Position numbers and translations under genes: made by a program. The notes beneath the pieces are model-generated. The model did no database searches. It was not told where the DNA came from and was given only the letters and a program-made list of their open reading frames with translations. Below, piece after piece: positions 5,382 to 52,506 of a DNA stretch of 64,000 nucleotides. The stretch comes from a virus (Duplodnaviria > Caudoviricetes), in the IMG/VR virus record IMGVR_UViG_3300044842_000203, positions 47,567 to 111,566 of that record, one strand, 5' to 3'. Each line of letters starts with the position of its first letter. Position 1 is the first letter of the stretch.

Positions 5382-5401
5382 CCGGAACAACCCCCACCAT
5401 A
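5382..5401 (-). promoter_or_regulatory. Motif promoter TATGGT-N7-GTTCCGG
   Basis: -10 hexamer plus heptamer, upstream of RBS. Confidence 0.75.
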
Positions 5402-5427
5402 CCATCACTGTGTGGCTGCGCAACTCG

Positions 5428-5976
5428 TTAACCCAGTTGGACGCGTCGCAGATCCTCGAACCCCGAGCGGTACAGCTTGTGCGCCTGATTCATCACCCAT
5501 TCCCACCGATTGAGCAACAGGCGCCGCGCGTTGGTTTGCGCGTCCTCCCAGGTGATGCGTTCACCGAAGCGGCGCACCACGCGAGCGAACATTTCCCGAT
5601 CTGAACACGCGCCGTCGTAGGAATACTCCAGCGACCGGGCGCGGTCGTAGCCGGGTTTGGTTTTCTCCACCCATAATGCTTCGCCGGTTTGTCCCGCGGC
5701 GCATGCCAGTAGCCAGTGCACGACCTTTTCGTCTTTCACGTCAATCATCTTGACGAAAAGATCTTCCTCAATGTCGATGCTAGTAACCCCCGACACTGAC
5801 ATGTCCTGTTTGCCGCCCACATGCAGCATCACCGACATATCCGTCATCGGCAAACCGCCCAGGGCGGCCACCGTCATGTGGGATGCCTCGTGAACAGATG
5901 CGGCGGTCACCAGGTGGCGGGCCACCTCGTCACCGAAGTAGGAATGGCTCGGCAAATCAGCGTGGTAGCGGCTCAT
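5428..5976 (-). CDS. Stand-alone M41 (FtsH-like) Zn-metallopeptidase domain
   Basis: HEASH, AAGQTGE, DGACSD motifs. Confidence 0.65.
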   Translation of the reverse strand: MSRYHADLPSHSYFGDEVARHLVTAASVHEASHMTVAALGGLPMTDMSVMLHVGGKQDMSVSGVTSIDIEEDLFVKMIDVKDEKVVHWLLACAAGQTGEALWVEKTKPGYDRARSLEYSYDGACSDREMFARVVRRFGERITWEDAQTNARRLLLNRWEWVMNQAHKLYRSGFEDLRRVQLG

Positions 5977-5982
5977 GATGAA

Positions 5983-6117
5983 TCACTGTTCCTGTCCATT
6001 ACTGCCAGATTCGGTGGTGGACCGATCATCGGCGCCAGGGTCGTCGACGGGTGCCCTTACATCGCCATTAAGTGAAGGCTCGGGGAGGCGTTCAAGGTCA
6101 TCGTCAGGGCTGCTCAC
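5983..6117 (-). CDS. 44-aa acidic peptide
   Basis: GTG after AGGAG, fills intergenic gap. Confidence 0.45.
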   Translation of the reverse strand: MSSPDDDLERLPEPSLNGDVRAPVDDPGADDRSTTESGSNGQEQ

Positions 6118-6124
6118 AGTGCTC

Positions 6125-6502
6125 CTAGGTGAGGGTTTTGCGGTGCCATGTCATGCCGTGCGCGTCCAGCCACTCGCCGAGTTCGGCGGTGAGCTGATCG
6201 TGCAGCTCAACAGCGGTCTCCCCGTTGGGGCCGCGGTAGAACGAACCCGTGTCCCAGCACACCTCAGCTCGGCGAGCGCGGTTTTGCGAATCGACCAGGT
6301 ACAGCAGAATCGCCAAATGCCCCTTGCCGCTAGTGGAGGCTTCCCGATTCTGCGGGGTGAGCAGGGTGACTTCCGGGGCGATGTCGCTGGGCGCCTCGTA
6401 CCACTCGATGTTCTCGGGAATGTCGAGCTGGCGAGCACAGAACTCGCGCAGCTCGCGGAGGTGGGTGGGGTTGGCGATGTAGATGGTGGTGTCGAGGGTC
6501 AT
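6125..6502 (-). CDS. Hypothetical phage protein
   Basis: ATGA-coupled to upstream gene. Confidence 0.7.
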   Translation of the reverse strand: MTLDTTIYIANPTHLRELREFCARQLDIPENIEWYEAPSDIAPEVTLLTPQNREASTSGKGHLAILLYLVDSQNRARRAEVCWDTGSFYRGPNGETAVELHDQLTAELGEWLDAHGMTWHRKTLT

Positions 6503-6933
6503 CCGGCGTCTCCGGGCATGAGGGTGAGCAGGTCGCAGTCAATGTCGAGATCAGATCCGAGGGCGCGGCATTCCTTGCAGCGCAGGTCGTAGCAGGCGCG
6601 GGGGTCGCGGCAGGGGGGTACGAGACTGTAGGTCCACTGGAGGTAGTCGTAGACCTGCTCGTTATCCAGCAGTAGTCGCATAGATCGCTGGCCAGGTGGA
6701 TGGAGGTCGAGCACGAACGTGGCGCCCATACGCTGCGCGGACAGGTCGAGGTTGTTGACGTAGCGCAGTTGGGCGTCGGCGAAGGTGGCGCGATCAATGA
6801 TCCAGCGCACCCAGCGGTCGTGCTGGTAGATGGCCAGGTGGATGGCCATGGGGAACAGCTCGGCGTTGTAGCAGAGTTTGATGGGCCGCTCGCAGCATGC
6901 GGTGGTGTCGAGGGCGAGTAGTGGTTTGCACAT
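6499..6933 (-). CDS. SsgA-like protein with C-terminal Cys4 motif
   Basis: LCYNAELFPMAIHL, WIIDRATF, YLQWTYSLVPP match SALP pattern. Confidence 0.65.
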   Translation of the reverse strand: MCKPLLALDTTACCERPIKLCYNAELFPMAIHLAIYQHDRWVRWIIDRATFADAQLRYVNNLDLSAQRMGATFVLDLHPPGQRSMRLLLDNEQVYDYLQWTYSLVPPCRDPRACYDLRCKECRALGSDLDIDCDLLTLMPGDAG

Positions 6934-6949
6934 GGGAGTCTCCTCAAGG

Positions 6950-6969
6950 CCGGAACATGGCTAAGGGTA
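6950..6969 (-). promoter_or_regulatory. Motif promoter TACCCT-N7-GTTCCGG
   Basis: Upstream of GAGGAG and ATG 6933. Confidence 0.75.
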
Positions 6970-6996
6970 TCACCACACGGGGCGGTGTTGGTGCGG

Positions 6997-7680
6997 CTAG
7001 CGGGTGGTCTTGCGCTGCGGGATGGGCAGGCCGAGGGTCGCCATGGCGGTGTGCCAGTTGATGGCTATTGCCCACTGCGCGGCGGCGAGGGTGACCTTGC
7101 GTTGGCACACGCCGTCGTGCAGCCAGCCCTCGATGTCGTCTTTGGTGTTGCGGTACGGGGGGTTGGCGTTGGGGATGTCGGAGACCTGCGGCCAGAAGTT
7201 GGTGACGTCATCGGAGCCGCCGAGCCATAGGGGCACGTCGTGGTCGAGTTCGGTCTTGGCGCGCTGGCTGGGGGGCACGCCGTAGGCGTGCATCGCCGCG
7301 GTTTTGAGCGCGTCGGTTTCGTCTTTGGGTGGGCGGATCGTTTGGGTCGACCAGGCGGGGTTGCAGATGGTTTGGTCGATGTTGTCTTGGGTGATGTCGG
7401 AGCGCACGGAGCCGGGGGTGCAGGCGCGCACCGGGAGACTGGGGTCGGCGCCGGTGGGTCGGACGCACAGGCTTGGGTAGGGCAGTCCGGTGACGTGGTT
7501 GCCGTTGGGGGTGATGGTGAGTACGCCGGGGTGGTCGTCGCGGTGTGCGGCGAGTTGGGCGTCGGTGGGTGGTGTGTTGATGCCGGCGTCGGGTGGTGTG
7601 GTGACGCGGAATGCGGGCGCCTGATTGGTACAGCCGGCGAGTAGAAGTGTGCAGCAGATGGTTAGTAGTGCGCGGCGCAT
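6997..7680 (-). CDS. Lipoprotein with HNH-like nuclease domain
   Basis: Lipobox LLAGC; ELDHDVPLWLGGSDDVTNFWPQ. Confidence 0.7.
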   Translation of the reverse strand: MRRALLTICCTLLLAGCTNQAPAFRVTTPPDAGINTPPTDAQLAAHRDDHPGVLTITPNGNHVTGLPYPSLCVRPTGADPSLPVRACTPGSVRSDITQDNIDQTICNPAWSTQTIRPPKDETDALKTAAMHAYGVPPSQRAKTELDHDVPLWLGGSDDVTNFWPQVSDIPNANPPYRNTKDDIEGWLHDGVCQRKVTLAAAQWAIAINWHTAMATLGLPIPQRKTTR

Positions 7681-7835
7681 GGTTGTCCCCCAGTTTGTTC
7701 GGCTCGCCAGGCGGCGAGCATGCGGATCCACAGTGGCGCATCATCGGCGGGGCGGTGGTTGCCCGCGCCGATGATGTCTAGCTCGAAATCGTCGATGGTG
7801 ATGGCGAGGTCATCGGCTGCGGTCGCGGTGTTCAC
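7662..7835 (-). CDS. 57-aa protein resembling RsdA sigma-binding region
   Basis: GTG after GGAGG; DDFELDIIGAG...LAAWRAE. Confidence 0.45.
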   Translation of the reverse strand: MNTATAADDLAITIDDFELDIIGAGNHRPADDAPLWIRMLAAWRAEQTGGQPCAAHY

Positions 7836-7992
7836 AGTGCCTCCGGTAGAGGTGACCGAGGGCGGCGATGACGAGCAGGCCGAGCAGGAAGTAGCCGCCG
7901 ATGCAGACGAGTGCGATGGCGAGCACGGTGAGGCTGAGTGTTGCGACGCCATCGGCGGTTTTGCTGGCGGCCTTGCTGGTGAAGTAGATCAT
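7810..7992 (-). CDS. Small membrane protein
   Basis: Hydrophobic stretch, RBS GAGGG. Confidence 0.6.
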   Translation of the reverse strand: MIYFTSKAASKTADGVATLSLTVLAIALVCIGGYFLLGLLVIAALGHLYRRHCEHRDRSR

Positions 7993-8040
7993 CGTTGGTG
8001 GTCCCTCGGTTGCGGGTTGGTTACACCCGGTGTATCGCGG

Positions 8041-8079
8041 CCGGAACAGGGCGCATTACTTTGCAGCTACACAACTAGT
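8041..8079 (-). promoter_or_regulatory. GTTCCGG site with upstream operator-like element
   Basis: 8056-8079 identical to 18895-18918. Confidence 0.7.
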
Positions 8080-8263
8080 CGGTGAGTGCTCCCTCGGCAA
8101 TCAACGCCCGGATCAGTTCGGCCATCGCGTCGGCGGCCACCTCAGCCTTGAGCCCGTAATCCCAGTGCCGCGTATCCAGCTCGTCGGCAACCCGCTCCCA
8201 CGTCTTGCCGAAAGTGCCGTCCAGGGAACGCACCACCTCAAGAGCAGCAGCGACGCTAATCAT
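8075..8263 (-). CDS. Hypothetical protein
   Basis: RBS GGAGG. Confidence 0.65.
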   Translation of the reverse strand: MISVAAALEVVRSLDGTFGKTWERVADELDTRHWDYGLKAEVAADAMAELIRALIAEGALTD

Positions 8264-8639
8264 GGTGCTGCCTCCGCTTCTGGGCGTACCGCTCGTCGGC
8301 GCAGATCACCGCGTAGTCCTCCGAGCCGATCAGCTCAGCCAGTACCGACGTTTTCGCCCGCTCGTGCCCCTCGTCGGTGATACCGCCCGACTCGGTGATC
8401 GCCTCGTCGTCCTCGACGATGGTCTCGCGGTAGGCGTCGAGCACGTGCCCGACGTCGGTGAAGCAATACAACGCTTCGCTGCCCTCCGGCAGCGCGTCGA
8501 CCGGCTTCAAGCCGAGCGGCTCGCCCGCGCCGTTCAGGCCGAACCGGCGCCACTTGCCCCAGCAGGGCACATAAACGTAGAAGCCCACGTGCTCGCCCTC
8601 TGGTATCCAACGAATCGCGGGCGGGTCGACGTAGCTCAC
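8256..8639 (-). CDS. Hypothetical protein
   Basis: GTGA-coupled, GGAGG. Confidence 0.7.
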   Translation of the reverse strand: MSYVDPPAIRWIPEGEHVGFYVYVPCWGKWRRFGLNGAGEPLGLKPVDALPEGSEALYCFTDVGHVLDAYRETIVEDDEAITESGGITDEGHERAKTSVLAELIGSEDYAVICADERYAQKRRQHHD

Positions 8640-9010
8640 AGCTTCACCTCCGCGGGCGGGTCGAGCACAGTGAACCCGTTCTCCTCAGCAGCCGGGCGGT
8701 GCTGGGCGCAGATGCCGTGAAAAGCGTCGAAGTGAGGATTGCTGCTGACGGAACGACCATGCCGATATCCAGAGTCGTAGTAGCCGGCCGCGCAGCCAGT
8801 GCAGCGGCGAGACCAACGGCACCCCTCGGCGAGGGCGTCCCGGATGCGCTGCGGCCGACGACACAGATGCGCCAACCAATCGGCGTGCTTTGCGAGAGCG
8901 GCCTGTTCGCCGGGCAGCATCTCGGTGAGGATCCGTCGCTGTGCCTCGTCATCATTGCCTTCAATGATCAAGTTGAGCAGTTTGCCCTCGAATGAGATCG
9001 GCTCCTGCAT
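8636..9010 (-). CDS. Hypothetical protein with CxxC
   Basis: ATG after GGAGGT. Confidence 0.65.
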   Translation of the reverse strand: MQEPISFEGKLLNLIIEGNDDEAQRRILTEMLPGEQAALAKHADWLAHLCRRPQRIRDALAEGCRWSRRCTGCAAGYYDSGYRHGRSVSSNPHFDAFHGICAQHRPAAEENGFTVLDPPAEVKL

Positions 9011-9014
9011 GGCG

Positions 9015-9137
9015 TTACCTCCATATTCGGTAGATGGCCCGCGCGGTGAACACCCCCACCAGTGAGCAGAGGCACAGGGCGTTGGCGAAGGCCAGGAGCA
9101 GGGCAAAGGGGTAGCCAAGATCGGCGGGGGTGAGCAT
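9015..9137 (-). CDS. Small membrane protein
   Basis: TGATG-coupled. Confidence 0.5.
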   Translation of the reverse strand: MLTPADLGYPFALLLAFANALCLCSLVGVFTARAIYRIWR

Positions 9138-9364
9138 CAGTACAGCTTGCGGCGTCGACCCCCGGCATGCCCGATGGCGCGCACGGAGCGCCACTCCAGA
9201 TACGCCCAGCCGAGGCAGATCAGGGTCGCCCAGCCGGTCACCGGGGAGTGCGAGCCGAAGATGAACCACACGATGAACAGCGCCAGGCCGGGCAGGAACA
9301 GGATGCGCAGGGCGAGGCCGAGCAGCGCGAACGGAAGTGTGATCAGGGCGCGGATGGTGTTCAT
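9137..9364 (-). CDS. Membrane protein
   Basis: TM helices, ATGA-coupled. Confidence 0.65.
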   Translation of the reverse strand: MNTIRALITLPFALLGLALRILFLPGLALFIVWFIFGSHSPVTGWATLICLGWAYLEWRSVRAIGHAGGRRRKLY

Positions 9365-9837
9365 GCCTCCCGCCTTCCGGTCAGGGGCTCGCCCCACACG
9401 TAGTCGATGCCGGCGTGGATGGCGTAGGTGATCCAGCGGATCAGGGTGGTGCACACGGTGACGAGCACTGCCCAGGCGGGGATACCGGCCAGGGACCACA
9501 GGGCCATGTCGTCGCGAGTGTGGATGCGGCCAGTGTGCTTAGCGAGCAGCGCGGCGGTGACCATGCAGCCGACGAAACCCACAGCGAGGAACACCACGAA
9601 CGTGAGGTTGATGGCGATATCCAGCGGAGTGGGGGCGTCGGGCCACCGTCGGTCGGGGTACCACTCGTCGCCGCAGGTGCGGCAGTAGTAGTAGGCGATG
9701 CCGATGTTGCGGTCGTCCTCGTGCCCGGTGAATGCCTCGTAGCATTCGGGGCAGTCGCGGCTGATGTAGCCGTTGTCGCGGCACTCATCTTCGGTGAGGA
9801 TCGGGTCGGGGGCGCGGTCGCGGAGTAGTCCGAGCAT
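9361..9837 (-). CDS. Zn-ribbon membrane protein
   Basis: CPEC...CRTC plus 2 TM. Confidence 0.65.
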   Translation of the reverse strand: MLGLLRDRAPDPILTEDECRDNGYISRDCPECYEAFTGHEDDRNIGIAYYYCRTCGDEWYPDRRWPDAPTPLDIAINLTFVVFLAVGFVGCMVTAALLAKHTGRIHTRDDMALWSLAGIPAWAVLVTVCTTLIRWITYAIHAGIDYVWGEPLTGRREA

Positions 9838-9839
9838 GG

Positions 9840-10328
9840 TTATCGCCGCCCGTAGATGCCGGGCCGGGCCGCGGTGTAGGCGTCCCATTCGGCGGAGGTC
9901 ATGATTTCGTTGGTGATGGGGTGGTGGGCGTGACCAAACCAGGATTGGCACTGGTAGCAGGTCATGCGCTCGTCGCCGTGCATGCCGTAGACGCATTCGA
10001 GGGTGTCGTCGATTTGCAGAGCGGTGGCGAGGTCACCGTCGATAAATGCCTGCCCGCGGCGCTCGTACAGGTCTTCGATGTGCGCGGCGCGGCGTTCTTC
10101 GCGTAGACGCTGCTCAGTGATGTGGTAGTGGCAGCGGTCTTCGCCGGGGGCTTTGGTGTTGTAGCACTCGATGCAGATGTGGGTGAGTTTGACGGCGGGC
10201 TCGCACCACCAGCGTTGCATCGGAGGGGTGGAGCGGCGCGGGCGGTAGTCGGCGGGGTCGTAGGGGATTTGCGCGAACTCGTCGAGCGGGTTGACGGAAG
10301 GCTGAGCGGCGTGGCCGGTGGCGTACAT
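9840..10328 (-). CDS. Cys/His-rich hypothetical protein
   Basis: ORF downstream of motif promoter. Confidence 0.7.
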   Translation of the reverse strand: MYATGHAAQPSVNPLDEFAQIPYDPADYRPRRSTPPMQRWWCEPAVKLTHICIECYNTKAPGEDRCHYHITEQRLREERRAAHIEDLYERRGQAFIDGDLATALQIDDTLECVYGMHGDERMTCYQCQSWFGHAHHPITNEIMTSAEWDAYTAARPGIYGRR

Positions 10329-10355
10329 GATGTACTCGATTCACTTCGGGGCTTG

Positions 10356-10375
10356 CCGGAACAACCACGACCCTA
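10356..10375 (-). promoter_or_regulatory. Motif promoter TAGGGT-N7-GTTCCGG
   Basis: Intergenic. Confidence 0.75.
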
Positions 10376-10417
10376 CCACGATGCTCGGCAGGGTCGCTAC
10401 TGGGTAACACGGGTGGG

Positions 10418-10747
10418 TTAGACGCGCTTGGCTTGACCTTCGATCAGGTGCACGCCGACCGGCTCCCCGAGCGCCGCCACCTCCGACCAGGCGCCCGGAT
10501 CGGACAGGATCACCTCGGGCGCCGGCCACACGTACACCTCGGGCAGTCCCCGGCACGGCCGGTACGGCTGAGTGCGCTGGCCGATCAACTGCACCAAGTC
10601 CCACCGCATACGGCGGGACTCCGACCAGCCCACGGCGGTGCGGCACGACAGGCGCGAGCATTCCCGGCTGAGGTCGAACTCCCAGTGCGCACACCACAGC
10701 ACTGCTGTGCCAGCGTCCAACTTGGCGCGGATGTCGTCGGTGATCAC
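10418..10747 (-). CDS. Hypothetical protein
   Basis: GTGA-coupled to 27-aa ORF 10744-10827. Confidence 0.55.
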   Translation of the reverse strand: MITDDIRAKLDAGTAVLWCAHWEFDLSRECSRLSCRTAVGWSESRRMRWDLVQLIGQRTQPYRPCRGLPEVYVWPAPEVILSDPGAWSEVAALGEPVGVHLIEGQAKRV

Positions 10748-10846
10748 AGCAGCACCGTCACGATCGCGGCCACCAGAAGCCATCCGATGTGCCACCACTG
10801 CGCAGCGGGATCGAGTGGCCAGTGCATGGGGGTCTCCTCAGTGGGG

Positions 10847-10853
10847 CCGGAAC
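10847..10853 (-). promoter_or_regulatory. GTTCCGG site, weak -10
   Basis: Intergenic, upstream of GAGGAG-ATG 10827. Confidence 0.5.
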
Positions 10854-10862
10854 AGGGCCTAG

Positions 10863-11072
10863 CTATTTACCGCGGGTAGCGTGCGTGAGGCTGAATCTCT
10901 CACCGGGTACGGCGACGGTGAGCGGGCCACCGTCAGGCACCCAGAATCGGCGCGAAACCCCGTCGACGGTGCCGGTGATGATGTGCCCACCCTCGGCGGG
11001 TGGTTCGGTGGGCAGGTGCCGGCAATGCCCGCAGTCACAACCAGGCGTGGCCAGTTCGACCAATCTGGTCAC
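10863..11072 (-). CDS. Small Cys-containing protein
   Basis: GTGA-coupled. Confidence 0.5.
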   Translation of the reverse strand: MTRLVELATPGCDCGHCRHLPTEPPAEGGHIITGTVDGVSRRFWVPDGGPLTVAVPGERFSLTHATRGK

Positions 11073-11467
11073 AGCATGCGTCCCTTCATGTCGGCTTTGC
11101 ACAGTCGGTCGATGCGGCGCGCAGCAGCGGCGATCTGCTGCACTTCGCTGGTGGGTAGGCGCCGCAGCAAGGCGGCGATCTCCGTGTCCTCAGTTGCCTC
11201 GGGCAGCCCGCAGAGGACGTCCTCCGCGCTGATCTCAGCCGGCCCAGCCATGTCCCCGATCACCTCGTCGAGGCGGGAGTCGGGCATGGCCGGGTCGCAC
11301 ACCCAGCTGAGAACAACGACCACGGGATCAACACCGCTAGCAGTGGCGTGGTCGTTGGCCAGGGAGCGGTACAACAGAGCATCCCGCATGGCCCGGATCT
11401 CCGTCGCGGATCGAATATCACCAGGACGCACGTGCTTCCAAGGCAGGTCAGGGGCGCGCATCACCAC
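11069..11467 (-). CDS. Hypothetical protein
   Basis: Overlap-coupled. Confidence 0.65.
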   Translation of the reverse strand: MVMRAPDLPWKHVRPGDIRSATEIRAMRDALLYRSLANDHATASGVDPVVVVLSWVCDPAMPDSRLDEVIGDMAGPAEISAEDVLCGLPEATEDTEIAALLRRLPTSEVQQIAAAARRIDRLCKADMKGRML

Positions 11468-12501
11468 TCGTCCATTCGGGCTAGTTCCTCAACGCACCTG
11501 GCGCAACCGTCGCCTTCGCCGGGGCCGTGACCGTGGTCGCACCAGCGGCAATATTCGAGCCGGTGACCGTTGGCCTCAATCAGTGGCACGTCGTGTTCGC
11601 AGTATTCGTCGTCACGCAATTTGCGCCACTGGTCAGGGCCAGTTTCGAAGCTGCCGAACCCGGCGCGGTCAGGGTCGGGTGGCACCCATTCCTCAAGCCC
11701 AGCTCCCCAGATGATCGGCTGATCGGGGTATTCGGGCAGATCTGACCAGCGACCGATGAGAATGCCTTCGTAGTGCGGCGCTTCGTCGATCGGTAGCCAC
11801 GTGACCGGGGACTCGGCGTACGGGGTGGTCCACCGCACCAGGGCTTTGACCAAAGGCTGGTCTTCGATCCACTCAGCGGCGGGGGTGTCCCACTGGCGGA
11901 CGCATTCAGCCTCGAACGCAAGTTGCGCCATGTCGCCGTTGGGGCCAGGCGTGGCCGCGAAAAACCAGTCGGCGCGGGACTTGTACTGCCCGGCGCGCTG
12001 GCGCAGCCAGTCGAGTAGGGCTAGCCGGTGGTCGTGGGTCATGTCGGCGAGCTTCACCGCCACGGTAGGCAGCTGTGCCCGGCCGATCGGACTCAGTCCC
12101 GAGCCGGGCCGGTCAGCGACGCGCATACGCCACCAGGCGCCCTGGTCGAGGAGTTGGTTAATGCTCACCCGCTCCGGCGGTGGACCCACCTCATCGGCGC
12201 CTTCCCAGTCGTCCCACTCCAGGTCGTCGGCGAGCCACGCCCAGTGGCGGGCGGCTTCCCGCGCTTGCCGGTCGGCGGTTTCGCCGGGGGTTTCGGGCTG
12301 CCAATCGGTGGCGATGCGCAGGTAATGCCCGTGACGTACGGGGGTGAGGGGGTGCTCATCGCTGTTGGGGGTGGTAATGCGAGCGGCGTGCCATCCACTG
12401 GTGATGGCTCGCGCGGCTAGCTGGGCGCGCTCAGGGTCGATGGCCAGCACTCCGGCCAGGGTTTGGGCGATAGTGTTGTTGAGTTCGTTGCGGGCGCTCA
12501 T
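11461..12501 (-). CDS. Hypothetical actinophage-type protein
   Basis: ATGA-coupled, GGAAGG RBS. Confidence 0.75.
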   Translation of the reverse strand: MSARNELNNTIAQTLAGVLAIDPERAQLAARAITSGWHAARITTPNSDEHPLTPVRHGHYLRIATDWQPETPGETADRQAREAARHWAWLADDLEWDDWEGADEVGPPPERVSINQLLDQGAWWRMRVADRPGSGLSPIGRAQLPTVAVKLADMTHDHRLALLDWLRQRAGQYKSRADWFFAATPGPNGDMAQLAFEAECVRQWDTPAAEWIEDQPLVKALVRWTTPYAESPVTWLPIDEAPHYEGILIGRWSDLPEYPDQPIIWGAGLEEWVPPDPDRAGFGSFETGPDQWRKLRDDEYCEHDVPLIEANGHRLEYCRWCDHGHGPGEGDGCARCVEELARMDEW

Positions 12502-12740
12502 CGGCGTGTTTCCTTCCAACGTGACCAAGCGGCGTAAATGAACATCAGCGCCCAGGCGCCGAGGAACGCGGCAATGATCGGGTGACCAGTGGTGGTTTGG
12601 CGGTAGGCGAAAAAGGCCATAGCCAGTGCGGCTAGTCCGTGCACCCACCATCGGGCAGGGCGGGTGGCGCGCTGTTCAGCGGCGGCGGCGCGAGCTTTGA
12701 GATAGGCGCGGGCCGTATCGCGGTCGGGCATGCGGGTCAT
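12498..12740 (-). CDS. Membrane protein
   Basis: 2 TM, ATGA-coupled. Confidence 0.65.
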   Translation of the reverse strand: MTRMPDRDTARAYLKARAAAAEQRATRPARWWVHGLAALAMAFFAYRQTTTGHPIIAAFLGAWALMFIYAAWSRWKETRR

Positions 12741-13264
12741 GACGTGTTCCGTTGTGCTTTGAGCGCGGCGGCGAGGGCGGCGTGTAACTGGTCTTTGCCG
12801 GGGCCGTCCCATAGGCCCAGCACGTCAGCGGCGGCGTCGACCATGGCGTCGGTGACGACCGGCTCTACCGGGGTGAAGATGGGCAGGTCGGGCCGGTCGA
12901 GGTGACCGACGATGCGTAGTCGCCGTTTTTGCTCAGGCTGGTCACCGGCTTGCCGAACAACCTCGACGACGGGGCCGCGGCCGAATGAGTTGGTGGCCAG
13001 GATGGTGCCCTCGGGCCACGGGAATGCGGCGTTGAGGGTTTGAGTGTCGTAGCCCATGGCAGGACCGAGTTCGCGGGCGGAGCACACCACGTCTAGGCCG
13101 CAGTTGTTGAGATATTCGAAGGCGGCGCGGGCGGTGGTGGCCCACACGAGGATTTGGCCTTGCCGATGGCGGTTGGGTTCGCCGAGGGCGTCGAGCACGT
13201 CGCGGGGCAGCCACGCGGAGCGCGCGAAATCACGCACCGCGTAAACCTTGAGTTCGCGGGCCAT
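12737..13264 (-). CDS. Hypothetical protein
   Basis: C-terminal PVVTDAMV motif shared with next gene. Confidence 0.7.
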   Translation of the reverse strand: MARELKVYAVRDFARSAWLPRDVLDALGEPNRHRQGQILVWATTARAAFEYLNNCGLDVVCSARELGPAMGYDTQTLNAAFPWPEGTILATNSFGRGPVVEVVRQAGDQPEQKRRLRIVGHLDRPDLPIFTPVEPVVTDAMVDAAADVLGLWDGPGKDQLHAALAAALKAQRNTS

Positions 13265-13266
13265 GG

Positions 13267-13611
13267 CTAGTCCTCTCGGGCGCGCAGAGCAGCAGCCAGT
13301 GCGTCACGAATGCGCTGGTCTCGGATGGGGGCTTCACCTGCGGGGCGGCCTTCATAGGCAAGGGAAAAAGCGCAGACCATGGCGTCGGTGACGATGGGCT
13401 CGTCCAGGTCGCCGGGGTTGGCGTGGTTGCATCGCCAGGCGCAAGAGCCGTCGATGAGTAGCGGCCAGCCGCACACAGCACCACCGTCGGTGATGGCTTC
13501 GCATTGCTGATCAATGGTGGGCAGCTCAGTGAAGGGCACGGCTTCGCCTGCGAGGTAGCGGTTCCACATGAGGCGTTGCGTGGGTGACAGGTGGGACAGA
13601 TCGGGGTTCAT
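13267..13611 (-). CDS. Hypothetical protein
   Basis: RBS GAGG; PIVTDAMV motif. Confidence 0.7.
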   Translation of the reverse strand: MNPDLSHLSPTQRLMWNRYLAGEAVPFTELPTIDQQCEAITDGGAVCGWPLLIDGSCAWRCNHANPGDLDEPIVTDAMVCAFSLAYEGRPAGEAPIRDQRIRDALAAALRARED

Positions 13612-13617
13612 GGGGTA

Positions 13618-13791
13618 TCAGTAGTCCTCGCCGCATTCGATGAGGCTGGCCATGATGGCGGCGGAGCGGCAGGCGCCGCGCCCGCGACGAAAGCCTTTGA
13701 TGCGGGGGTGCGGGCCGGCGGCGTTGGAGCGGCGACGCTCTTGGACCTCGACAACGGGACGGGGGACGGGGCGCATGGTAGGCGCGGACAC
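13618..13791 (-). CDS. Small basic protein
   Basis: GTG after AGGAG. Confidence 0.55.
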   Translation of the reverse strand: MSAPTMRPVPRPVVEVQERRRSNAAGPHPRIKGFRRGRGACRSAAIMASLIECGEDY

Positions 13792-13817
13792 GATGGTCTC
13801 CTGTAGGTAGGACTTGA

Positions 13818-13837
13818 CCGGAACATGGTCGAGCCTA
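13818..13837 (-). promoter_or_regulatory. Motif promoter TAGGCT-N7-GTTCCGG
   Basis: Intergenic. Confidence 0.8.
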
Positions 13838-13855
13838 CCACGCACCGCCGTGGCG

Positions 13856-14254
13856 TCAACCTGTTGCTTTACCCGAGTCTGTTGGGGATGTCGCGTGCCC
13901 GTGCCGGGTACCGGTGCGCCTCTTGCGTTCCATCTGCGCCACCTCGGGTGGCTGCTCTTGCCCCACGTTGTCGCGGCGACCCAGCTCGACGCGGGCGTCC
14001 TGCTGAGTGACGAGATGCATTTCGCGGCGCATGCCGTTGGGGTCGGCGTATTCCCACTCACCGAGCGGGTCGCAGGTCTCGGGCACGAAGTAGCGCCAGC
14101 GTTTCAGCCCGCACGAAGTGCAGTGCGCGCGAGTGACCCAGACGACGGGCTTTTGAGTGTCGTCGCGTTGCATGGGGGCGGGCCCGTGGTCCCAGGTGTG
14201 CTGAAATCCGCGGCAGGTGAGGTTTTGCCGCTGTGCCTGCATGAGGTCGATCAA
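13856..14254 (-). CDS. Zn-binding actinophage-type protein
   Basis: CRGFQHTW...CTSC. Confidence 0.7.
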   Translation of the reverse strand: MIDLMQAQRQNLTCRGFQHTWDHGPAPMQRDDTQKPVVWVTRAHCTSCGLKRWRYFVPETCDPLGEWEYADPNGMRREMHLVTQQDARVELGRRDNVGQEQPPEVAQMERKRRTGTRHGHATSPTDSGKATG

Positions 14255-14292
14255 AGGTTGCTCCTACGGTCCAATTGTCCGGCCGGGTGTGG

Positions 14293-14312
14293 CCGGAACG
14301 GTTTTCACCGTA
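14293..14312 (-). promoter_or_regulatory. Motif promoter TACGGT-N7-GTTCCGG
   Basis: Intergenic. Confidence 0.75.
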
Positions 14313-14499
14313 GCGCGGGTTTCCGGGGGAGGGGACGGGCCTCGTGTCTGGGGGAGGTCGAGGCCCGTCACTGGGGGCGATCATCATGGAACCGGGTGCC
14401 CGTTTGCGGTGGGTGGGCCAGAAACCCGGCGTGTTCCAGTGTGCACAGATGAAACCGCCCAGCGCGGTGTTGGTGCGCTGGGCGGTCGGTTTGGGGCGG

Positions 14500-14790
14500 T
14501 TAGCGGGCGATCTGGACGTAGTTGGTGAGTTTGGTGATGCCCGTGACGGTTCCCTCAGTAACGAGGTAGGGAGCGGCGGGGCGCAGCTTGCGGCGCACGG
14601 CCTCCAGGGAGCGATAGGTGCCATTGCGCTGGCCTTGCGCGGCCATGGTGCGTTCGACGGCGGCAAGAGCCTCGCGGGGAGTGCCTTCGAAGATGACGTA
14701 GGTCTTGCCCTCGGTGATGTAGATGCCTTCGACGCGGCGCAGAGCACTGATGTTGTGACCGGTGAGCTGACGAACCTTAGTGGTGATCAT
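14500..14790 (-). CDS. Hypothetical protein
   Basis: GAGAGG RBS; GTTCCGG at 14815-14821; downstream hairpin near 14454-14486. Confidence 0.7.
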   Translation of the reverse strand: MITTKVRQLTGHNISALRRVEGIYITEGKTYVIFEGTPREALAAVERTMAAQGQRNGTYRSLEAVRRKLRPAAPYLVTEGTVTGITKLTNYVQIAR

Positions 14791-14829
14791 TGTTGCCTCT
14801 CTCGGATTGTGTGGCCGGAACGGTGGCGG

Positions 14830-14976
14830 TTAGCGGGTAGGTGGCTGGTCGCAGTGACACAGCATGAGTTCGCGGAAGTGCAAGTGACCGCTGCCGTAGC
14901 GAGGCCGTGAATCGCAGATGATGCAGGCTTCGTTGAGGGCTACGCCGTGCTCGCACTGAGCTTCGATGTGTTCCAT
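14830..14976 (-). CDS. Small Cys/His-rich protein
   Basis: ATG after AGGAG. Confidence 0.55.
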   Translation of the reverse strand: MEHIEAQCEHGVALNEACIICDSRPRYGSGHLHFRELMLCHCDQPPTR

Positions 14977-14994
14977 GGTGATGTCTCCTGGTGG

Positions 14995-15014
14995 CCGGAA
15001 CAGGTCATACACTA
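14995..15014 (-). promoter_or_regulatory. Motif promoter TAGTGT-N7-GTTCCGG
   Basis: Intergenic. Confidence 0.8.
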
Positions 15015-15093
15015 CCAGTATCGCGCAGCCACAAAGTAGCGTTACGCGGCGCGCCACCCGAACAGAGCAGTCACCGCGGGCTACCGTGCGCGC

Positions 15094-16643: not shown

Positions 16644-16659
16644 GATGCCTCCTCAAGGG

Positions 16660-17053: not shown

Positions 17054-17084
17054 CCGGGCCCGGTGAGGGGCCCGGCGTCGCGCG

Positions 17085-42712: not shown

Positions 42713-42724
42713 TCTCCGTTCCGG
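42705..42724 (+). promoter_or_regulatory. Motif promoter TAGGCT-N7-GTTCCGG
   Basis: Upstream of AGGAG-ATG 42746. Confidence 0.8.
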
Positions 42725-42745
42725 CATTTCGAGGCAGGAGACCAC

Positions 42746-43036
42746 ATGCCTACCAGGCGGGACATCCGCGTAGCCAAGAAGCGGCTGCTCGTCGAGCTGG
42801 TCGAGGAGCTGGAGGATCGCGAGCAGTACGAAACCGGGGCCGGTGTCGAGGCCACACATCAGCTGGTCGCCGAGTTCCGCGCTCGCGCCGGCATCGCGCT
42901 GCCCGAACCTGCCCCCGGCCAGGAGCCGCTACCCGGTATCGGGTTGTGGCAAATCGACTTCCCCGAAGGCTTCCGCAACGGCCAGCCGGCCGTGGTGACC
43001 GAGTTCCGGCCAACCTGGAGGACTGATGAACACTGA
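42746..43036 (+). CDS. Hypothetical protein
   Basis: AGGAG RBS. Confidence 0.65.
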   Translation: MPTRRDIRVAKKRLLVELVEELEDREQYETGAGVEATHQLVAEFRARAGIALPEPAPGQEPLPGIGLWQIDFPEGFRNGQPAVVTEFRPTWRTDEH

Positions 43037-43451
43037 CGAGCTGAACATGCAGATACAACAGCTGCGCAGGGCCGTGCCGGCTTTAGAGTTCCCGCCCCCC
43101 GACTGCCAGTTTTGCGGTGAGCCAACCAACCCGGTCGACGACTGTTTTGACTGCGAGAACTGCGGCCTAACCTGGGACCGAGAGGGCAGGTTCCTGGAGC
43201 CGATCAACAGGGATGTGCCGCGCTGCGGCGCTGAAATCAAGCCCTGGGCTGATAACCCGAAGTACGCGGTTATTCAGGGACACACCTACTGCTGCGTGCT
43301 CGATGCGGGCCACGGTGAGGGCGAGCACCCGCGGATGACTCATCGCGGCTACCGGGTGGACAAGGACTACACCCTCGACGACACGCACTCGTGGCCCGTG
43401 GATCCAAACAATCCCCGCTACCCAGAGCTAGAAGTGGTGGTGAAGTCGTGA
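43026..43451 (+). CDS. Zn-ribbon hypothetical protein
   Basis: CQFC...CENC. Confidence 0.7.
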   Translation: MNTDELNMQIQQLRRAVPALEFPPPDCQFCGEPTNPVDDCFDCENCGLTWDREGRFLEPINRDVPRCGAEIKPWADNPKYAVIQGHTYCCVLDAGHGEGEHPRMTHRGYRVDKDYTLDDTHSWPVDPNNPRYPELEVVVKS

Positions 43452-43630: not shown

Positions 43631-44406
43631 CCGCCACTATCACCCGCCGCTGGACCTACTCGGCCGCGCTCGCTTACGTCACCTGTCCACATCAGTGGTG
43701 GCTGACCCGAGTCGCCAACACTCCCCGCGCCCCGGCCGAGCCCGAGGCGTTCCGCGGGATGCTCATGCACGCTGGCCTGGCGGCTGGCTGGCCCGAGGCG
43801 CATCGCCTGATTCAGGCCGGCGTGGACCCCGCCATGGTGGAGCTATCCGCCGACGACGCCCTGATCGACGCCATGGAGCAAGAGGCAACCCGACTCAACG
43901 TTCCGGTCACCCCCGAGATGGTGGACACCGCTTGCCGGGCCTTGCATTACTGCGGCCCCCAACCTGGTGATGAACTGATCGGTACGGAGTTGGATCTCGA
44001 CATCCGCGTCGACGGGGTGCCAGTTGGTTACCGCGCCGATCTGATTTACCGCCGGGACGGGGCGCACGTGGTGCGCGACTGGAAGTCCCGCACCACCCTG
44101 CCCAAGACTCGCGACCTGCCGCGGGACTGGCAGCTGGGGGTGGGCGCACTTGCGGTGGCCCGCACCTACGGTACGACGAACGTGCTCGTCGAGATGGCGT
44201 CCATCAACGGTGCTACTTCCGTGTGCACCCCGATCGGCCGTGATCAGGCCCGCCGGCACGGTCAGCTGGTGGCCGAGGTGGCCCATAAAGCGGAGGCCGA
44301 TACCGAGCATGCGCCGAAGCCTGGCAAAGCATGCGGTGCTTGTCCGGTGCGCGGCGCCTGTTTCGTGCACAACCCAGTTCCGGCTATACAGGAGGCAATC
44401 TCATGA
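43627..44406 (+). CDS. RecB/Cas4-like PD-(D/E)XK nuclease
   Basis: CP near N-terminus, RADL, DWKS, CGACPVRGAC. Confidence 0.85.
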   Translation: MTATITRRWTYSAALAYVTCPHQWWLTRVANTPRAPAEPEAFRGMLMHAGLAAGWPEAHRLIQAGVDPAMVELSADDALIDAMEQEATRLNVPVTPEMVDTACRALHYCGPQPGDELIGTELDLDIRVDGVPVGYRADLIYRRDGAHVVRDWKSRTTLPKTRDLPRDWQLGVGALAVARTYGTTNVLVEMASINGATSVCTPIGRDQARRHGQLVAEVAHKAEADTEHAPKPGKACGACPVRGACFVHNPVPAIQEAIS

Positions 44407-44912
44407 TTTTCGTCGATGACGTAGCGATTCAGGCTGACGTGCACAACGCTGAGGTGGGCATCACCCACCGATCACGCTGGTATCACCTGATCTCTGATCG
44501 GCTCGATCCCGAGGAGTTGCATAAGTTTGCTACGGAATCACTCAAACTGCGCCGCTCCTACTTCCAGCCGGGTCGCGATCTTATGAGCCGGGAGCACGAT
44601 CCGGCGCACGACCACTATGACCTGACCGAAGGCAAGCGCAAGCTAGCTATTCAGAAGGGCGCGATTCCGATCAGCACCGTTGATCTGGGGTCGATTATTC
44701 GGCTCAAGCGCGAAGCACTCCGGTTTCCGCAATGCGGCTACGCCCTTGTTCAGAATCGCAGTGATGGGTGGGTTTGTGGCTTGGAATGGGGCCAGGAAGC
44801 TGAGGATTCTCCGATGGTCGGGGCAGCGGCCTATGGGGTGGGCGAAACCATTCACGAGGCGATCACCGCTGCCCTGCGTGAATCGTCACCGGTAGGAGGC
44901 TCCCATGCTTGA
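44403..44912 (+). CDS. DUF4031-domain protein
   Basis: IFVDD, WYHLISD, EELHKFA, HYDLT. Confidence 0.8.
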   Translation: MIFVDDVAIQADVHNAEVGITHRSRWYHLISDRLDPEELHKFATESLKLRRSYFQPGRDLMSREHDPAHDHYDLTEGKRKLAIQKGAIPISTVDLGSIIRLKREALRFPQCGYALVQNRSDGWVCGLEWGQEAEDSPMVGAAAYGVGETIHEAITAALRESSPVGGSHA

Positions 44913-46407: not shown

Positions 46408-46875
46408 ATGGACATCACCGTGCCGATGGTCAGCGCCACAGGTGTCCCGCTGTCGGGGCGACTGATCTACGACCCGGTTCGCAATCCGCTGGCGATTGAC
46501 CTGATTCTTAGCTGCATCACGGGTGAGGTGTTCCCGATCGCCCGGCAGTTGGTCGCCGAGGCGTATGCGCATTCCCCGGTGCTGCTCGGCCTGGGTGCGC
46601 GGGTGCAGATGCAGATCCGGGACAGGCAGACCACGGTGATCGTGCTGTTCCCCCGAGAGGCGCCCGCGCAGATGTTCTACCTCTCGACGCAGTCCCTGTT
46701 GACGTTCGTGACGGGCACTCGGCAGTTGACGGAGCCGTGCGTGGAGGGGGTGTGTGAGCAAGCGGGGTGTTTTGAGTGCGCGTGGCTGCGCAGGCAGATC
46801 CCCGCCTGCTCCTGCGGGGTGGTAGACTGCAACTCGTTCCGGCCTGTTGAGTGTCCGCCCGAGGAGGATCTGTGA
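46408..46875 (+). CDS. SsgA-like protein with C-terminal Cys-rich motif
   Basis: GRLIYDPVRNPLAIDL, FPIARQLV, LLTFVTGTRQL. Confidence 0.6.
   Translation: MDITVPMVSATGVPLSGRLIYDPVRNPLAIDLILSCITGEVFPIARQLVAEAYAHSPVLLGLGARVQMQIRDRQTTVIVLFPREAPAQMFYLSTQSLLTFVTGTRQLTEPCVEGVCEQAGCFECAWLRRQIPACSCGVVDCNSFRPVECPPEEDL
46823..46842 (+). promoter_or_regulatory. Motif promoter TAGACT-N7-GTTCCGG
   Basis: Upstream of GAGGAGG-GTG 46872. Confidence 0.75.
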
Positions 46876-49964: not shown

Positions 49965-51497
49965 GTGCCAGCGAGAAGCGCATACACCCGGCGCGGCGTA
50001 GACGCCGATCCGGAGATCTTCGCTGCCACGTTGGAGTTCATCAAGGCCATTCCGGTTGATCCGACCGATGTGGACCTGTTCACCCCTAAACCGTTGTCCG
50101 AGGGCATCGACTGGGGTGCGCTCGGGTTCACCGAGGTGCCCTACTGGGCTGACGCCGCTTCGCCCACGATCGCCGCACTGCGCGCTATCGAACCACCGGG
50201 TGCGCGACGCTGGCGCCAGACCGCCCGGCCGTCGCAGATTCCGCCCGCGGGCGATCAGTGGATGTATTGGGTCATTATGGCGGGCAGAGGCTTTGGGAAG
50301 ACTTTTTGCGGCAGTAACACTCTCGCCGAGATGGCGATTGCCAACCGGGGCGACTACGCGGTGATCGCGCCGACCTTCGGTGACGCGCGCAAGATCTGCA
50401 CCGAGGGTCCGTCCGGGCTATTGGTGGCACTCGGTGATGATCTCGCCGATTACAACAAATCCGACTACATCATCTACCTGGTCAACGGCAGTCGCATCGT
50501 GCTCGCCTCCGCCGATGCGCCAGATCGTTTGCGCGGGTGGAACCTGTCGGGCGCCTGGTGCGATGAGCTGGCGTCGTTTGGCACGGGTCAAAAAGAGCTG
50601 TGGGACGAGGCGCTGATGCCGGCGCTGCGTATCGGCCAGCGCCCCCGCATGGTCATCACTACTACTCCCCGGCGCTCCGCTGTGGTGCTGCGCGAACTGC
50701 TGGTCCGTGCTAAGCACGGTGATCCCGCGGTTGCTATCACGCGCGGTTCGACATTCGAGAATCGCGCAAACCTGTCGCCCGCCTTCCTGGCGGAAATGGA
50801 GAACCGCTACGCAGGCACGACCACGGGCCGTCAAGAACTCGACGGCGAGATGCTCGATGAAGTCGAAGGCGCCCTCGTCACCGCGCGACTCATCGACTCC
50901 ACCCGCATCCTCGACGGCAACCTCGTGCCCAACCTGCGACGGCTCGCCATCGGTATCGACCCCGCGGTCACCGCCAACGACACCTCCGATGCGTGCGGAC
51001 TTATCGCTGTTGGGCTCGGCGGGCCGCCGCTGCACGGCTGGACGGGCGCGCCCTCGAAAGTGGAAGGGCCACATCTCTACTTCCTCGGTGACGCCACGAT
51101 GCGGGGCACACCGCACGCGTGGGCGCTGCGATCACTGCTGCTCGCCGAGGAGTGGGCGGCGGATCTCATGGTGGTGGAAAAGAACCAAGGCGGCGACCTG
51201 TGTTCCACCATGCTGAGGATGGTGGCCAAAGAGGCCGATGTGTATCTGCCGCGGATTCTGCCGGTGACCGCCACGCACGGTAAGAAGACTCGCGCCGAGC
51301 CGGTGGCGGGCATGTTCGAGCAGCACCGGGCGCACATCGTGGGTGGTCTGCCCGGTTTGGAGGATGGGTTCACGAGTTGGGTGCCGGGTGACCCCGAGAG
51401 CCCGAATGAGCTGGATGCAGGCGTGTGGGGCGCGGTGGGCCTGATACCGCAGCTCGCGCCGAAGGGGCGGCCTCCGGCGCGAGTGATAGCAGGGTAG
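49965..51497 (+). CDS. terL: Terminase large subunit
   Basis: AGRGFGKT, WCDE, TTTP, GRQELDGE, GIDPA, VEKNQGG, KKTRAEP. Confidence 0.93.
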   Translation: MPARSAYTRRGVDADPEIFAATLEFIKAIPVDPTDVDLFTPKPLSEGIDWGALGFTEVPYWADAASPTIAALRAIEPPGARRWRQTARPSQIPPAGDQWMYWVIMAGRGFGKTFCGSNTLAEMAIANRGDYAVIAPTFGDARKICTEGPSGLLVALGDDLADYNKSDYIIYLVNGSRIVLASADAPDRLRGWNLSGAWCDELASFGTGQKELWDEALMPALRIGQRPRMVITTTPRRSAVVLRELLVRAKHGDPAVAITRGSTFENRANLSPAFLAEMENRYAGTTTGRQELDGEMLDEVEGALVTARLIDSTRILDGNLVPNLRRLAIGIDPAVTANDTSDACGLIAVGLGGPPLHGWTGAPSKVEGPHLYFLGDATMRGTPHAWALRSLLLAEEWAADLMVVEKNQGGDLCSTMLRMVAKEADVYLPRILPVTATHGKKTRAEPVAGMFEQHRAHIVGGLPGLEDGFTSWVPGDPESPNELDAGVWGAVGLIPQLAPKGRPPARVIAG

Positions 51498-51643
51498 GCC
51501 GGCGCTCCTGCACGCCGTCGGGGGCGATGCCCAGCGCGGCGCGTTTGCACCACGTACAGCGACAGTTCCATGGCTGTGCGTAGCCTGCCAGCGTTCCATG
51601 CGGAGCGTCGGGGACCGATACCACCTAGCCTCCTGGAGTTGAT

Positions 51644-52384
51644 GTGATCACAGTCGTCAATGCGAGCACGCGCGTAACCAATGACCAGGTGTCGTTGATG
51701 ACCCGCGCCTGCTGGACGCAGGTTCAGCGCGATGCCGGCCCCGCGTGGCGGTTGCAGCCTATGCCCGTGGTGTTCAGCACCGACCCGAAGACTGCCCCGC
51801 CCGGATCGTGGCTAATCACCGTGTTCGACACCCCTGACCAGGCAAATGCGCTCGGTTACCACGATGTCACCAACGGCGACGTGATCTACGGGAAGGTGTT
51901 CGCCGGCCCGGTCCTCGACAACGGCGGCGACGCCCTGTCCAAGCCGCTGAGCGTGGCCAGCGTGCTCTCACACGAGGTACTCGAAACGTTCGTTGATCCT
52001 TTTTGCAACGTGTGGCACGACACTGAGCGCGGCTACTCCATCGCCCGCGAGGTGGGTGACCCGGTGGAGTCGGACTCCTACCCGGTGACGGTCGACTCCT
52101 ACCAGATCACCGTGTCCAACTTCGTCACCGAACGATGGTTCGATCCTTTCGCCAAGGGCGGCCGGTTCGACTTCATGGGCCGGGTGTCCAAGCCGTTCAC
52201 CATGACCAGCGGCGGCTACCTGATTTTGATGAAGGATGGCAAGGTCAGCCAAACCTTCGGCGAACACTTCCCCAGCTGGAAGCGCGCCGGCAAAGAGTTC
52301 CCGATCGCACGCACCGCGCGGCGCGTCGAGCAGCAGCAGCGCAGGCCGCTGATCGACAAGATCCTCGATGTAGTCGCAGAGTAG
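51644..52384 (+). CDS. Putative Zn-metallopeptidase-like protein
   Basis: ALGYH, SHEVLETFVDP, EVGDP. Confidence 0.6.
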   Translation: MITVVNASTRVTNDQVSLMTRACWTQVQRDAGPAWRLQPMPVVFSTDPKTAPPGSWLITVFDTPDQANALGYHDVTNGDVIYGKVFAGPVLDNGGDALSKPLSVASVLSHEVLETFVDPFCNVWHDTERGYSIAREVGDPVESDSYPVTVDSYQITVSNFVTERWFDPFAKGGRFDFMGRVSKPFTMTSGGYLILMKDGKVSQTFGEHFPSWKRAGKEFPIARTARRVEQQQRRPLIDKILDVVAE

Positions 52385-52401
52385 AGTCTGCGGTGTTCCG
52401 G
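52382..52401 (+). promoter_or_regulatory. Motif promoter TAGAGT-N7-GTTCCGG
   Basis: Drives no ORF. Confidence 0.75.
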
Positions 52402-52463
52402 CCGGGACGAATGTTCTCGGTCCGACGTTCGCTCCCATGGCGGGAGCACCGGCCGGAGCACCA
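52395..52463 (+). ncRNA. 69-nt tRNA-like RNA ending in ACCA
   Basis: GTTCCGGCCGG pairs with CCGGCCGGAGC; two internal hairpins. Confidence 0.55.
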
Positions 52464-52486
52464 CAAATCGCGCGACTACCCTCTGG

Positions 52487-52506
52487 TAGGATCGCAGTCG
52501 TTCCGC
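52487..52506 (+). promoter_or_regulatory. Variant motif promoter TAGGAT-N7-GTTCCGC
   Basis: Upstream of GGGAG-ATG 52533. Confidence 0.7.

Follow-up and report, generated by a model that had tools for sequence, protein, structure and literature searches.

The final 64 kb of IMG/VR virus record IMGVR_UViG_3300044842_000203, the 111,566-bp genome of an uncultivated soil phage (hereafter G000; G+C content 65%), carries repeated copies of the heptamer GTTCCGG (hereafter the box) a few bases downstream of sequences resembling promoter -10 elements. This raises the question of what one fixed sequence does at the predicted start of some 25 early phage transcripts. The stretch analyzed here, referred to as the window, comprises record positions 47,567-111,566.

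A promoter module with a box at the predicted start

An earlier note on this DNA had listed 13 minus-strand and eight plus-strand promoter-type sites, as well as six sites with a weaker -10, and all of them were found in place. The enrichment that it anticipated over shuffled background is also present: the window contains 35 copies of the heptamer, whereas dinucleotide shuffles have 12.95 +/- 3.4 and not one of 100 reached 35. The composite pattern TANNNT-N6-8-GTTCCGG occurs 23 times in the whole 111.6-kb genome (mean 0.21, maximum 2 in 100 order-2 Markov simulations), with a spacer of 7 at 20 sites, 8 at two sites and 6 at one. A position weight matrix applied at a threshold of at least 18 bits recovers 22 genome sites and none in 20 simulated genomes. 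In k-mer statistics, the motif disappears into maximal-order Markov models, and codon effects overwhelm those of low order. The orientation of the sites tracks gene direction without exception, 21 of the 23 composite sites are intergenic, and 18 of them are located 23-54 nt 5' of a called start codon.

A logo built from 60 sites in four related genomes, in which the TA and the T of TANNNT were fixed by the search, gives the consensus TGGTAnnnT-N6-Y-GTTCCGG-Y. The three bases preceding TA were not imposed, and they are T in 54/60, G in 58/60 and G in 51/60 sites; pyrimidines flank the box at -1 and at +8, each in 59/60. Between -50 and -17 the information content stays at or below 0.33 bit throughout, that is, there is no conserved -35. 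The sites therefore have the form of TGnTAnnnT extended -10 elements, in agreement with the proposal that they are sigmaA/HrdB-type promoters. The interior of the -10 hexamer is free, and the A at position 2 and T at position 6 that typify primary-sigma -10 elements are invariant; TANNNT is the -10 hexamer described in high-GC actinobacteria (PMC4895711). From the form of the motif, the upstream half would be an extended -10 promoter read by the host primary sigma factor. In strict promoter context the box tolerates changes only at its position 7 (G 45, A 6, C 1, T 1).

The heptamer does not correspond to a -35 element, as the note had stressed, and instead occupies the predicted start. Its G is the eighth base past the hexamer, and the pyrimidine-to-G step at the seventh and eighth bases, together with the 7-nt spacer, is consistent with a start at or next to this G, promoters of this class initiating 6-8 nt beyond the hexamer. 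Since positions 4000-23999 contain no E. coli-type (TTGACA-type) -35/-10 pairs against 2.9 expected, the module is apparently the principal type of promoter in the early region.

The module is shared by related phages. Pattern scans covered 2.9 million viral contigs, with the module pattern read backward as a control, and more than one hit per contig was obtained in one family only, namely G001 (18 modules), G002 (18), G003 (16), G004 (6), G005 (3) and G007 (6), with 0-1 for the control. G001 and G002 are about 120 kb long with direct terminal repeats. The relatives match G000 at 65-75% nucleotide identity in patches, with 30-60% identity between orthologous proteins. Where the G000 gene has a box, its orthologue has one as well in 20 of 31 pairs; where it has none, the orthologue has one in 3 of 145 (Fisher p = 1e-15). 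In aligned upstream regions the extended -10 and the box alone persist while the flanks have fully diverged. Judged from these comparisons, the module is a trait under selection in a small clade of 110-120-kb soil phages.

No promoter-type site had been seen in the virion blocks. This holds inside the window; the remaining 47 kb of the genome contains five more, one of which lies inside a giant head-associated gene. This gene, encoding more than 3000 amino acids, holds the module at the same place in all four genomes, and the codon before the box is CGT or TGT, so the amino acid differs and the pyrimidine at -1 is preserved. The giant-gene module (L162 13850-13875, genome about 33352-33374, with equivalents in G001, G003 and G004) is complete, lies about 620-650 nt from the gene start and is accompanied by a GAGGGG ribosome site and an in-frame start, an arrangement that suggests separate expression of a large C-terminal part.

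The box in leaders with and without a promoter

The box is also found apart from the -10. The six sites that had been credited with a weaker -10 contain no TANNNT at a spacing of 6-8, and they belong to a -10-less class. Heptamers that lack TANNNT at this spacing and lie in sense in an intergenic leader no more than 60 nt from a start number 9/30, 9/38, 3/27 and 3/31, against about 3-4% expected. They precede start codons by 23-58 nt, and many have C-rich flanks with no resemblance to a -10. The copy at 19687, in front of G000 gene 78, is conserved in its -10-less form in three orthologues. For genes 71 and 76, which follow the copies at 14815 and 18857, a full module in an orthologue replaces the -10-less form, and in one orthologous set (three orthologues) the box is positioned 24-25 nt downstream of a different TANNNT. 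The distance from box to start codon is alike with and without a promoter (medians 30 and 31 nt). Because -10-less leader copies exist and are conserved between orthologues, the box is, on sequence grounds, a separable leader element onto which promoters dock, and a phage-specific signal. Its earlier description as a +1 feature thus fits the promoter modules and does not extend to the leaders that have no -10 or a differently placed one. Upstream hairpins do not mark the -10-less boxes, showing no clear difference from promoter sites.

Two side observations concern such boxes. A conserved ORF-free (open reading frame-free) element between co-directional genes (L162 16674-16885, genome 36174-36385; L146 in G001, 17937-18108) comprises, in order, a terminator-like hairpin with compensatory changes, a -10-less box and a second small hairpin, and a TACACT -10 is conserved on its opposite strand. 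In G003, L156 carries 5' of gene 84 a tRNA-like 3' half (GGTTCGACTCC T-arm and acceptor strand) directly before the -10-less box, which would be co-transcribed behind the tRNA.

The leaders themselves are short (23-45 nt) and run into a GAG/GGAG ribosome site, with the box about 18 nt 5' of that site and 23-58 nt (median 30) before the start. They have less structure than shuffled sequences (z = +0.77), with pairing of the box below that in controls (0.46 vs 0.54, p = 0.003). A 5' stem-loop, or sequestration of the Shine-Dalgarno sequence by the box, was accordingly rejected. The leaders share no hairpin, so the lambda-type nut arrangement of boxA plus a boxB hairpin is absent from them.

Most in-gene heptamers are TTC-CGG codon pairs whose flanks are at chance level (29% with pyrimidines on both sides), from which it follows that the active unit would be the 9-mer in leader context. 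Fifteen full 9-mers do lie inside genes in sense orientation and are not avoided. The in-gene hexamer is skewed to the sense strand (rank 10 of 2178 for strand asymmetry); this asymmetry is within the null spread (SD 3.5) and is accounted for by the codon pairs.

Two of the phages are predicted to encode a small, promoter-driven, ORF-free RNA of about 62-69 nt that is closed by a stem of 10-11 bp between the box at its 5' end and an anti-box at its 3' end. The G000 copy (window 52395-52463) would fold over 52395-52459 with an 11-bp stem and a deltaG of about -40, followed by ACCA, and the G003 copy (L153 10392-10452) ends without ACCA. A second box promoter is found about 90-105 nt past each small RNA. 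The RNA at 52395 has no tRNA or Rfam match, and the idea of a tRNA-like or guide RNA was dropped, the ACCA tail not being common to the G003 analogue.

What might read the box

The phage is a tailed one, with genes for large terminase, portal, capsid, baseplate J, gp25 and endolysin (Pfam/PHROGs scans), and its replication genes encode a DnaE-type polymerase, SF1 and SNF2 helicases and a primase-polymerase. An SsgA-like ORF, an XRE-DUF5753 regulator, a polymerase nearest to Pseudonocardia and other Actinomycetota (58-60% identity, compared with 50% for Streptomyces phages) and the origin of matching sequencing runs (window 10000-19900 matched soil/rhizosphere DNA runs only) together indicate that the host is probably actinobacterial. 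No close relatives came up when 20-kb pieces were compared with phages and plasmids by megablast, and the TraB-like protein gave no host clue, having no relative among the genome contigs searched.

In 5 + 301 genomes of Actinomycetes, the module occurs at most three times per genome and about 80 times in total, not more commonly than the control; this tally includes a single match in the unpublished genome G277, which does not affect the conclusion. A recurrent host hit is gyrase-like coding sequence. Because the module does not rise above control in these 306 actinobacterial genomes, the box is by this comparison phage-specific rather than a generic host start sequence. A full-text literature search for the heptamer gave only primer noise, and literature searches on early promoters of Streptomyces phages turned up nothing comparable; no description of the motif was found in the literature searched.

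No phage RNA polymerase or sigma factor was detected in Pfam/PHROGs scans of about 130 ORFs, and large proteins of unidentified family resolved to an FtsK-like translocase and a primase-polymerase. The only helix-turn-helix (HTH) proteins found were a GntR/UTRA protein and the XRE-DUF5753 regulator, the latter with no orthologue in relatives, and no integrase appeared in the Pfam scans; the genome also has small ORFs without an assigned function. A conserved gene at 30907-31488, a candidate regulator, matched only unnamed viral clusters in a protein atlas.

What the analysis establishes is the motif itself, together with how it is phased and conserved, that it can be separated from the -10, and that it is missing from the host-like genomes searched. 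The explanation that ranks first, tentatively and with a little less than an even chance of being right, is that a clade-conserved factor recognizes the box in RNA, as a leader tag. Host polymerase carrying its primary sigma factor would open the -35-less extended -10 and begin transcription at or next to the box G. The short unstructured leader would then have the box as its 5' end, where it would act as a tag in the transcript. This factor might be a protein or an RNA of the phage, or else a host component that the phage modifies, and it would control tagged mRNAs through their stability, translation or read-through. Action in RNA is placed first because the box would be transcribed whole, is always in sense, is accessible, is equally placed before ribosome sites and is interchangeable between contexts.

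Several points weigh against it. The start at G, the action in RNA and the trans-acting factor are all inferred from sequence, and neither an RNA-binding protein nor a conserved antisense RNA was identified. Some of the -10-less copies may in fact be cryptic promoters, and a lack of leader structure is to be expected near any ribosome site. A factor touching RNA polymerase on DNA would also account for the exact 7-nt phasing, and oriented, asymmetric intergenic sites are likewise a hallmark of DNA-level stoperators (PMC9283540). The host-genome control may have missed the relevant species.

An RNA tag and a DNA operator were the two options raised in the earlier note, and the evidence tilts to the former without deciding. 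The operator is the most serious competitor, albeit an unlikely one: a phage DNA-binding protein would bind the asymmetric site as a monomer, block initiation over +1 and halt elongation at promoter-less copies, producing a stoperator-like global early shut-off that serves as a temporal switch or immunity. A site over +1 is the classical position for a repressor, and the -10-less intergenic copies fit a roadblock. However, 9 bp is short for a specific DNA binder, the in-gene sense 9-mers are not avoided, and steric occlusion requires neither transcription of the whole box nor a start at its first base. The two HTH proteins are poor candidates, one lacking an orthologue in relatives and the other belonging to the GntR/UTRA proteins, which as a rule bind palindromic sites as dimers; a further point against the operator is that no integrase was seen in the Pfam scans.

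The 13-bp consensus of stoperators is of the GGTGGMTGTCAAG type, to which the 9-nt Y-GTTCCGG-Y shows no likeness. Like the stoperators of Cluster A mycobacteriophages (L5 gp71 type; PMC9283540, PMC6550527), the box is present in many asymmetric copies (about 30) in short intergenic regions, in a single orientation relative to transcription, with some copies over a promoter. Unlike the box, stoperators are not phased to a -10 and belong to temperate phages with an identified repressor, whereas two thirds of the box copies begin exactly at the predicted +1, and neither a repressor nor an integrase was found here.

A broader version of the RNA tag, somewhat less probable than the operator, is a genome-wide 5' tag: a clade factor would read GUUCCGG at or near the 5' end and so separate phage from host messages for protection, preferential translation or read-through, with the box:anti-box RNAs as decoys or regulators.

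An improbable alternative makes the box an intrinsic initiation element, on which host polymerase (sigmaA with RbpA and CarD) starts or escapes best when +1 to +8 are fixed, no extra factor being required. The exact phasing to the -10 (spacer 7 at 20 of 23 sites) is in its favor, as are the pyrimidine at -1 and G at +1, which are the usual start-site preference, and the lack of E. coli-type promoters at 4000-23999, which leaves the modules as the main promoters; in T7-type promoters, too, the conserved +1 to +6 can belong to promoter function. However, it does not explain why -10-less boxes are conserved in leaders or why the module is not enriched in actinobacterial genomes, and seven invariant bases exceed the known sequence reading by polymerase downstream of +2.

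Two further proposals have very little probability. In one, an RNA polymerase or sigma factor encoded by the phage would use the whole 23-bp motif as its promoter, and the similarity to a sigmaA -10 would be a coincidence. Conservation through +1 is typical of promoters of phage single-subunit polymerases: T7-type promoters are conserved from -17 to +6, and all transcripts of a class start with the same few bases. However, no polymerase or sigma domain was found in any scanned ORF, the large proteins resolved otherwise, and the free -10 interior and the TG at the extended position point to primary-sigma reading. Equally remote is a polar word for the FtsK/TraB-like translocase (KOPS, SRS or TRS type), with the leader position secondary. 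The TCCGG core of clt-like repeats near 3640-3700 and the sense skew of the in-gene hexamer speak for it, but that skew stays within a broad null, the sense copies are explained by codon pairs, and such a word does not need fixed phasing to a -10 or start codon.

Among other known systems, the E. coli 'cold box' is a short conserved sequence at the 5' ends of cold-shock mRNAs that is thought to act after initiation; it differs from the box in being a host regulon of few members, with another sequence and without phasing to an extended -10. An activator box at about -30 that stands in for the -35, as in MotA-dependent middle promoters of T4, has no counterpart here, as nothing is conserved upstream of -17 in the 60-site logo. 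Thermus phage P23-45 uses extended -10 middle/late promoters with gp39, a factor that displaces sigma region 4 (PMC3950348). Like the module, these promoters use the host primary-sigma holoenzyme with TGn and the -10 alone and no -35, a design by which a phage can silence -35-dependent host promoters while its own fire (PMC3950348); unlike in P23-45, no gp39-like factor was identified here, and the box is also found apart from promoters. The SAS/ESAS motifs of Cluster K mycobacteriophages (PMC3203893) resemble the box in being clade-specific, asymmetric sense leader motifs on non-structural genes across gene families, and for them too a post-transcriptional role is suspected. However, SAS is a 13-bp GGGATAGGAGCCC with a Shine-Dalgarno core 3-7 bp from the start codon (PMC3203893), whereas the box is mostly 23-45 nt upstream, has no Shine-Dalgarno sequence and is docked to a -10.

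Phage-specific promoter and leader motifs are known; what is unusual here is that predicted host-polymerase promoters carry, over their first transcribed bases, an invariant box that persists even where no promoter is present. If the box is an RNA tag, it would reveal a new means by which a phage labels its mRNAs, and a genome-wide 5' tag would parallel, in a bacterial virus, the shared leaders known from some eukaryotic viruses. If it is a DNA site, stoperator-like control would reach a new clade and act from a new position over +1. Either way, the module provides a short (about 24 bp) and portable signal for expression in high-GC actinobacteria, and a simple sequence marker for an uncultivated clade of 110-120-kb soil phages.

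Sites in the window and neighboring features

Table 1. Box sites in the window, assigned by sequence pattern. The box is Y-GTTCCGG-Y unless a variant is given.
Feature	Position	Strand	Details
Promoter module	5381-5404	-	TGGTATGGT, spacer 7, T-GTTCCGG-C; gene 4731-5360 begins 28 nt downstream
Promoter module	6949-6972	-	TGATACCCT, spacer 7; gene 6499-6933 begins 23 nt downstream
Box without TANNNT at 6-8	8040-8048	-	Leader, 55 nt 5' of gene 7810-7992; AGTTGTGTAGCTGCAAA motif precedes
Promoter module	10355-10378	-	TGGTAGGGT, spacer 7; gene 9840-10328 begins 34 nt downstream
Box without canonical -10	10846-10854	-	Followed by GAGGAGAC and ATG
Promoter module	13817-13840	-	TGGTAGGCT, spacer 7; also TTGACG -35-like hexamer; module kept in orthologue G001_149
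Promoter module	14292-14315	-	Weak extended part (CGCTACGGT), spacer 7; gene 13856-14254
Box without -10	14814-14822	-	31 nt 5' of gene 14500-14790; full module at same place in orthologue G001_145
Promoter module	14994-15017	-	TGGTAGTGT, spacer 7; 48-aa ORF begins 25 nt downstream
Promoter module	16659-16682	-	TGGTAGGCT, spacer 7; gene 16194-16643 begins 23 nt downstream
Promoter module	17640-17662	-	Spacer 6 (CGCTAGGCT); gene 17085-17621; AGTTGTGCAGCTGCAAA upstream
Promoter module	18178-18201	-	TGGTAGGCT, spacer 7; no called gene before strong terminator 17769-17740
Two tandem boxes 21 nt apart, without canonical -10	18856-18885	-	Before cation-efflux gene 18212-18829; full module in G003_80, -10-less box in G001_147
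Box without -10	19686-19694	-	41-nt gap between co-directional genes; -10-less in three orthologues (G000_78, G001_138, G003_84)
Promoter module	20924-20948	-	Spacer 8 (TGGTACCCT); gene 20413-20877; kept by orthologues
Promoter module	25880-25903	-	TGGTATGCT, spacer 7; gene 25272-25862
Promoter module, box GTTCCGA	28424-28447	-	Gene 28024-28401
Promoter module	30874-30897	-	TGGTAGGGT, spacer 7; gene 30589-30849; kept in G001_112, G003_101
Promoter module	31898-31922	+	Spacer 8; 94-nt leader to gene 32009-33259; second GTTCCGA 12 nt downstream
Promoter module	33278-33301	+	Before SF1 helicase gene 33326-34675
Promoter module, box GTTCCAG	37441-37464	+	Variant TGATAGAGT; before RNase T-type exonuclease gene 37480-38340
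Promoter module	38427-38450	+	Before DUF7307 gene 38479-39063; kept in G001_96, G004_78
Promoter module	42702-42725	+	Before gene 42746-43036
Heptamer, A at -1, doubtful member	43002-43010	+	Inside gene end, 23 nt 5' of gene 43026-43451
Heptamer, A at -1, doubtful member	44376-44384	+	26 nt 5' of gene 44403-44912
Promoter module	46820-46843	+	TGGTAGACT, spacer 7; 44-aa ORF begins at 46872
Promoter module and ORF-free structured RNA	52379-52463	+	GAGTAGAGT; RNA about 65-69 nt, box:anti-box stem
Promoter module, box GTTCCGC	52484-52507	+	Before gene 52533-52937

The promoter at 18179 (window 17740-18201) is followed by about 440 nt without a convincing ORF up to a terminator with a 13-bp stem and a T run, and its transcript may be non-coding or encode a small peptide. 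A second motif, AGTTGTGYAGCTGCAAA, with a core resembling the palindrome TGCAGCTGCA, lies 5' of four box sites in G000 (window 8049-8075, 17663-17690 and 18886-18910; genome 38486-38499). A simple search did not find it in the relatives, and it may serve as operator for a regulator particular to G000.

Host-like accessory genes are present in window 3752-31488 (the SsgA-like ORF, the cation-efflux protein at 18212-18829 and an AAA_33 kinase), and the other half of the genome (within genome 1-42532) encodes sortase, STAS (anti-sigma antagonist type), iron permease and YdjM domains. The gene for the FtsK/TraB-like translocase (1436-3601) adjoins that for the GntR regulator, and 3' of it TCCGGAG-type direct repeats at window 3640-3700 resemble the clt locus of conjugative plasmids; they have the TCCGG core in common with the box, and one repeat is a chance GTTCCGG.

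The ends of the record (genome 1-547, window 63454-64000) overlap by 547 bp at 99.1% identity, with 5 mismatches, within one gene. Probably, mixed variants were assembled into a contig that is circularly closed or terminally redundant. In the coding regions of G000, G001, G003 and G004, the palindromes CCGCGG, CCCGGG, CTGCAG and CTCGAG are strongly depleted relative to synonymous shuffles (z -19 to -9), which looks like restriction-site avoidance.

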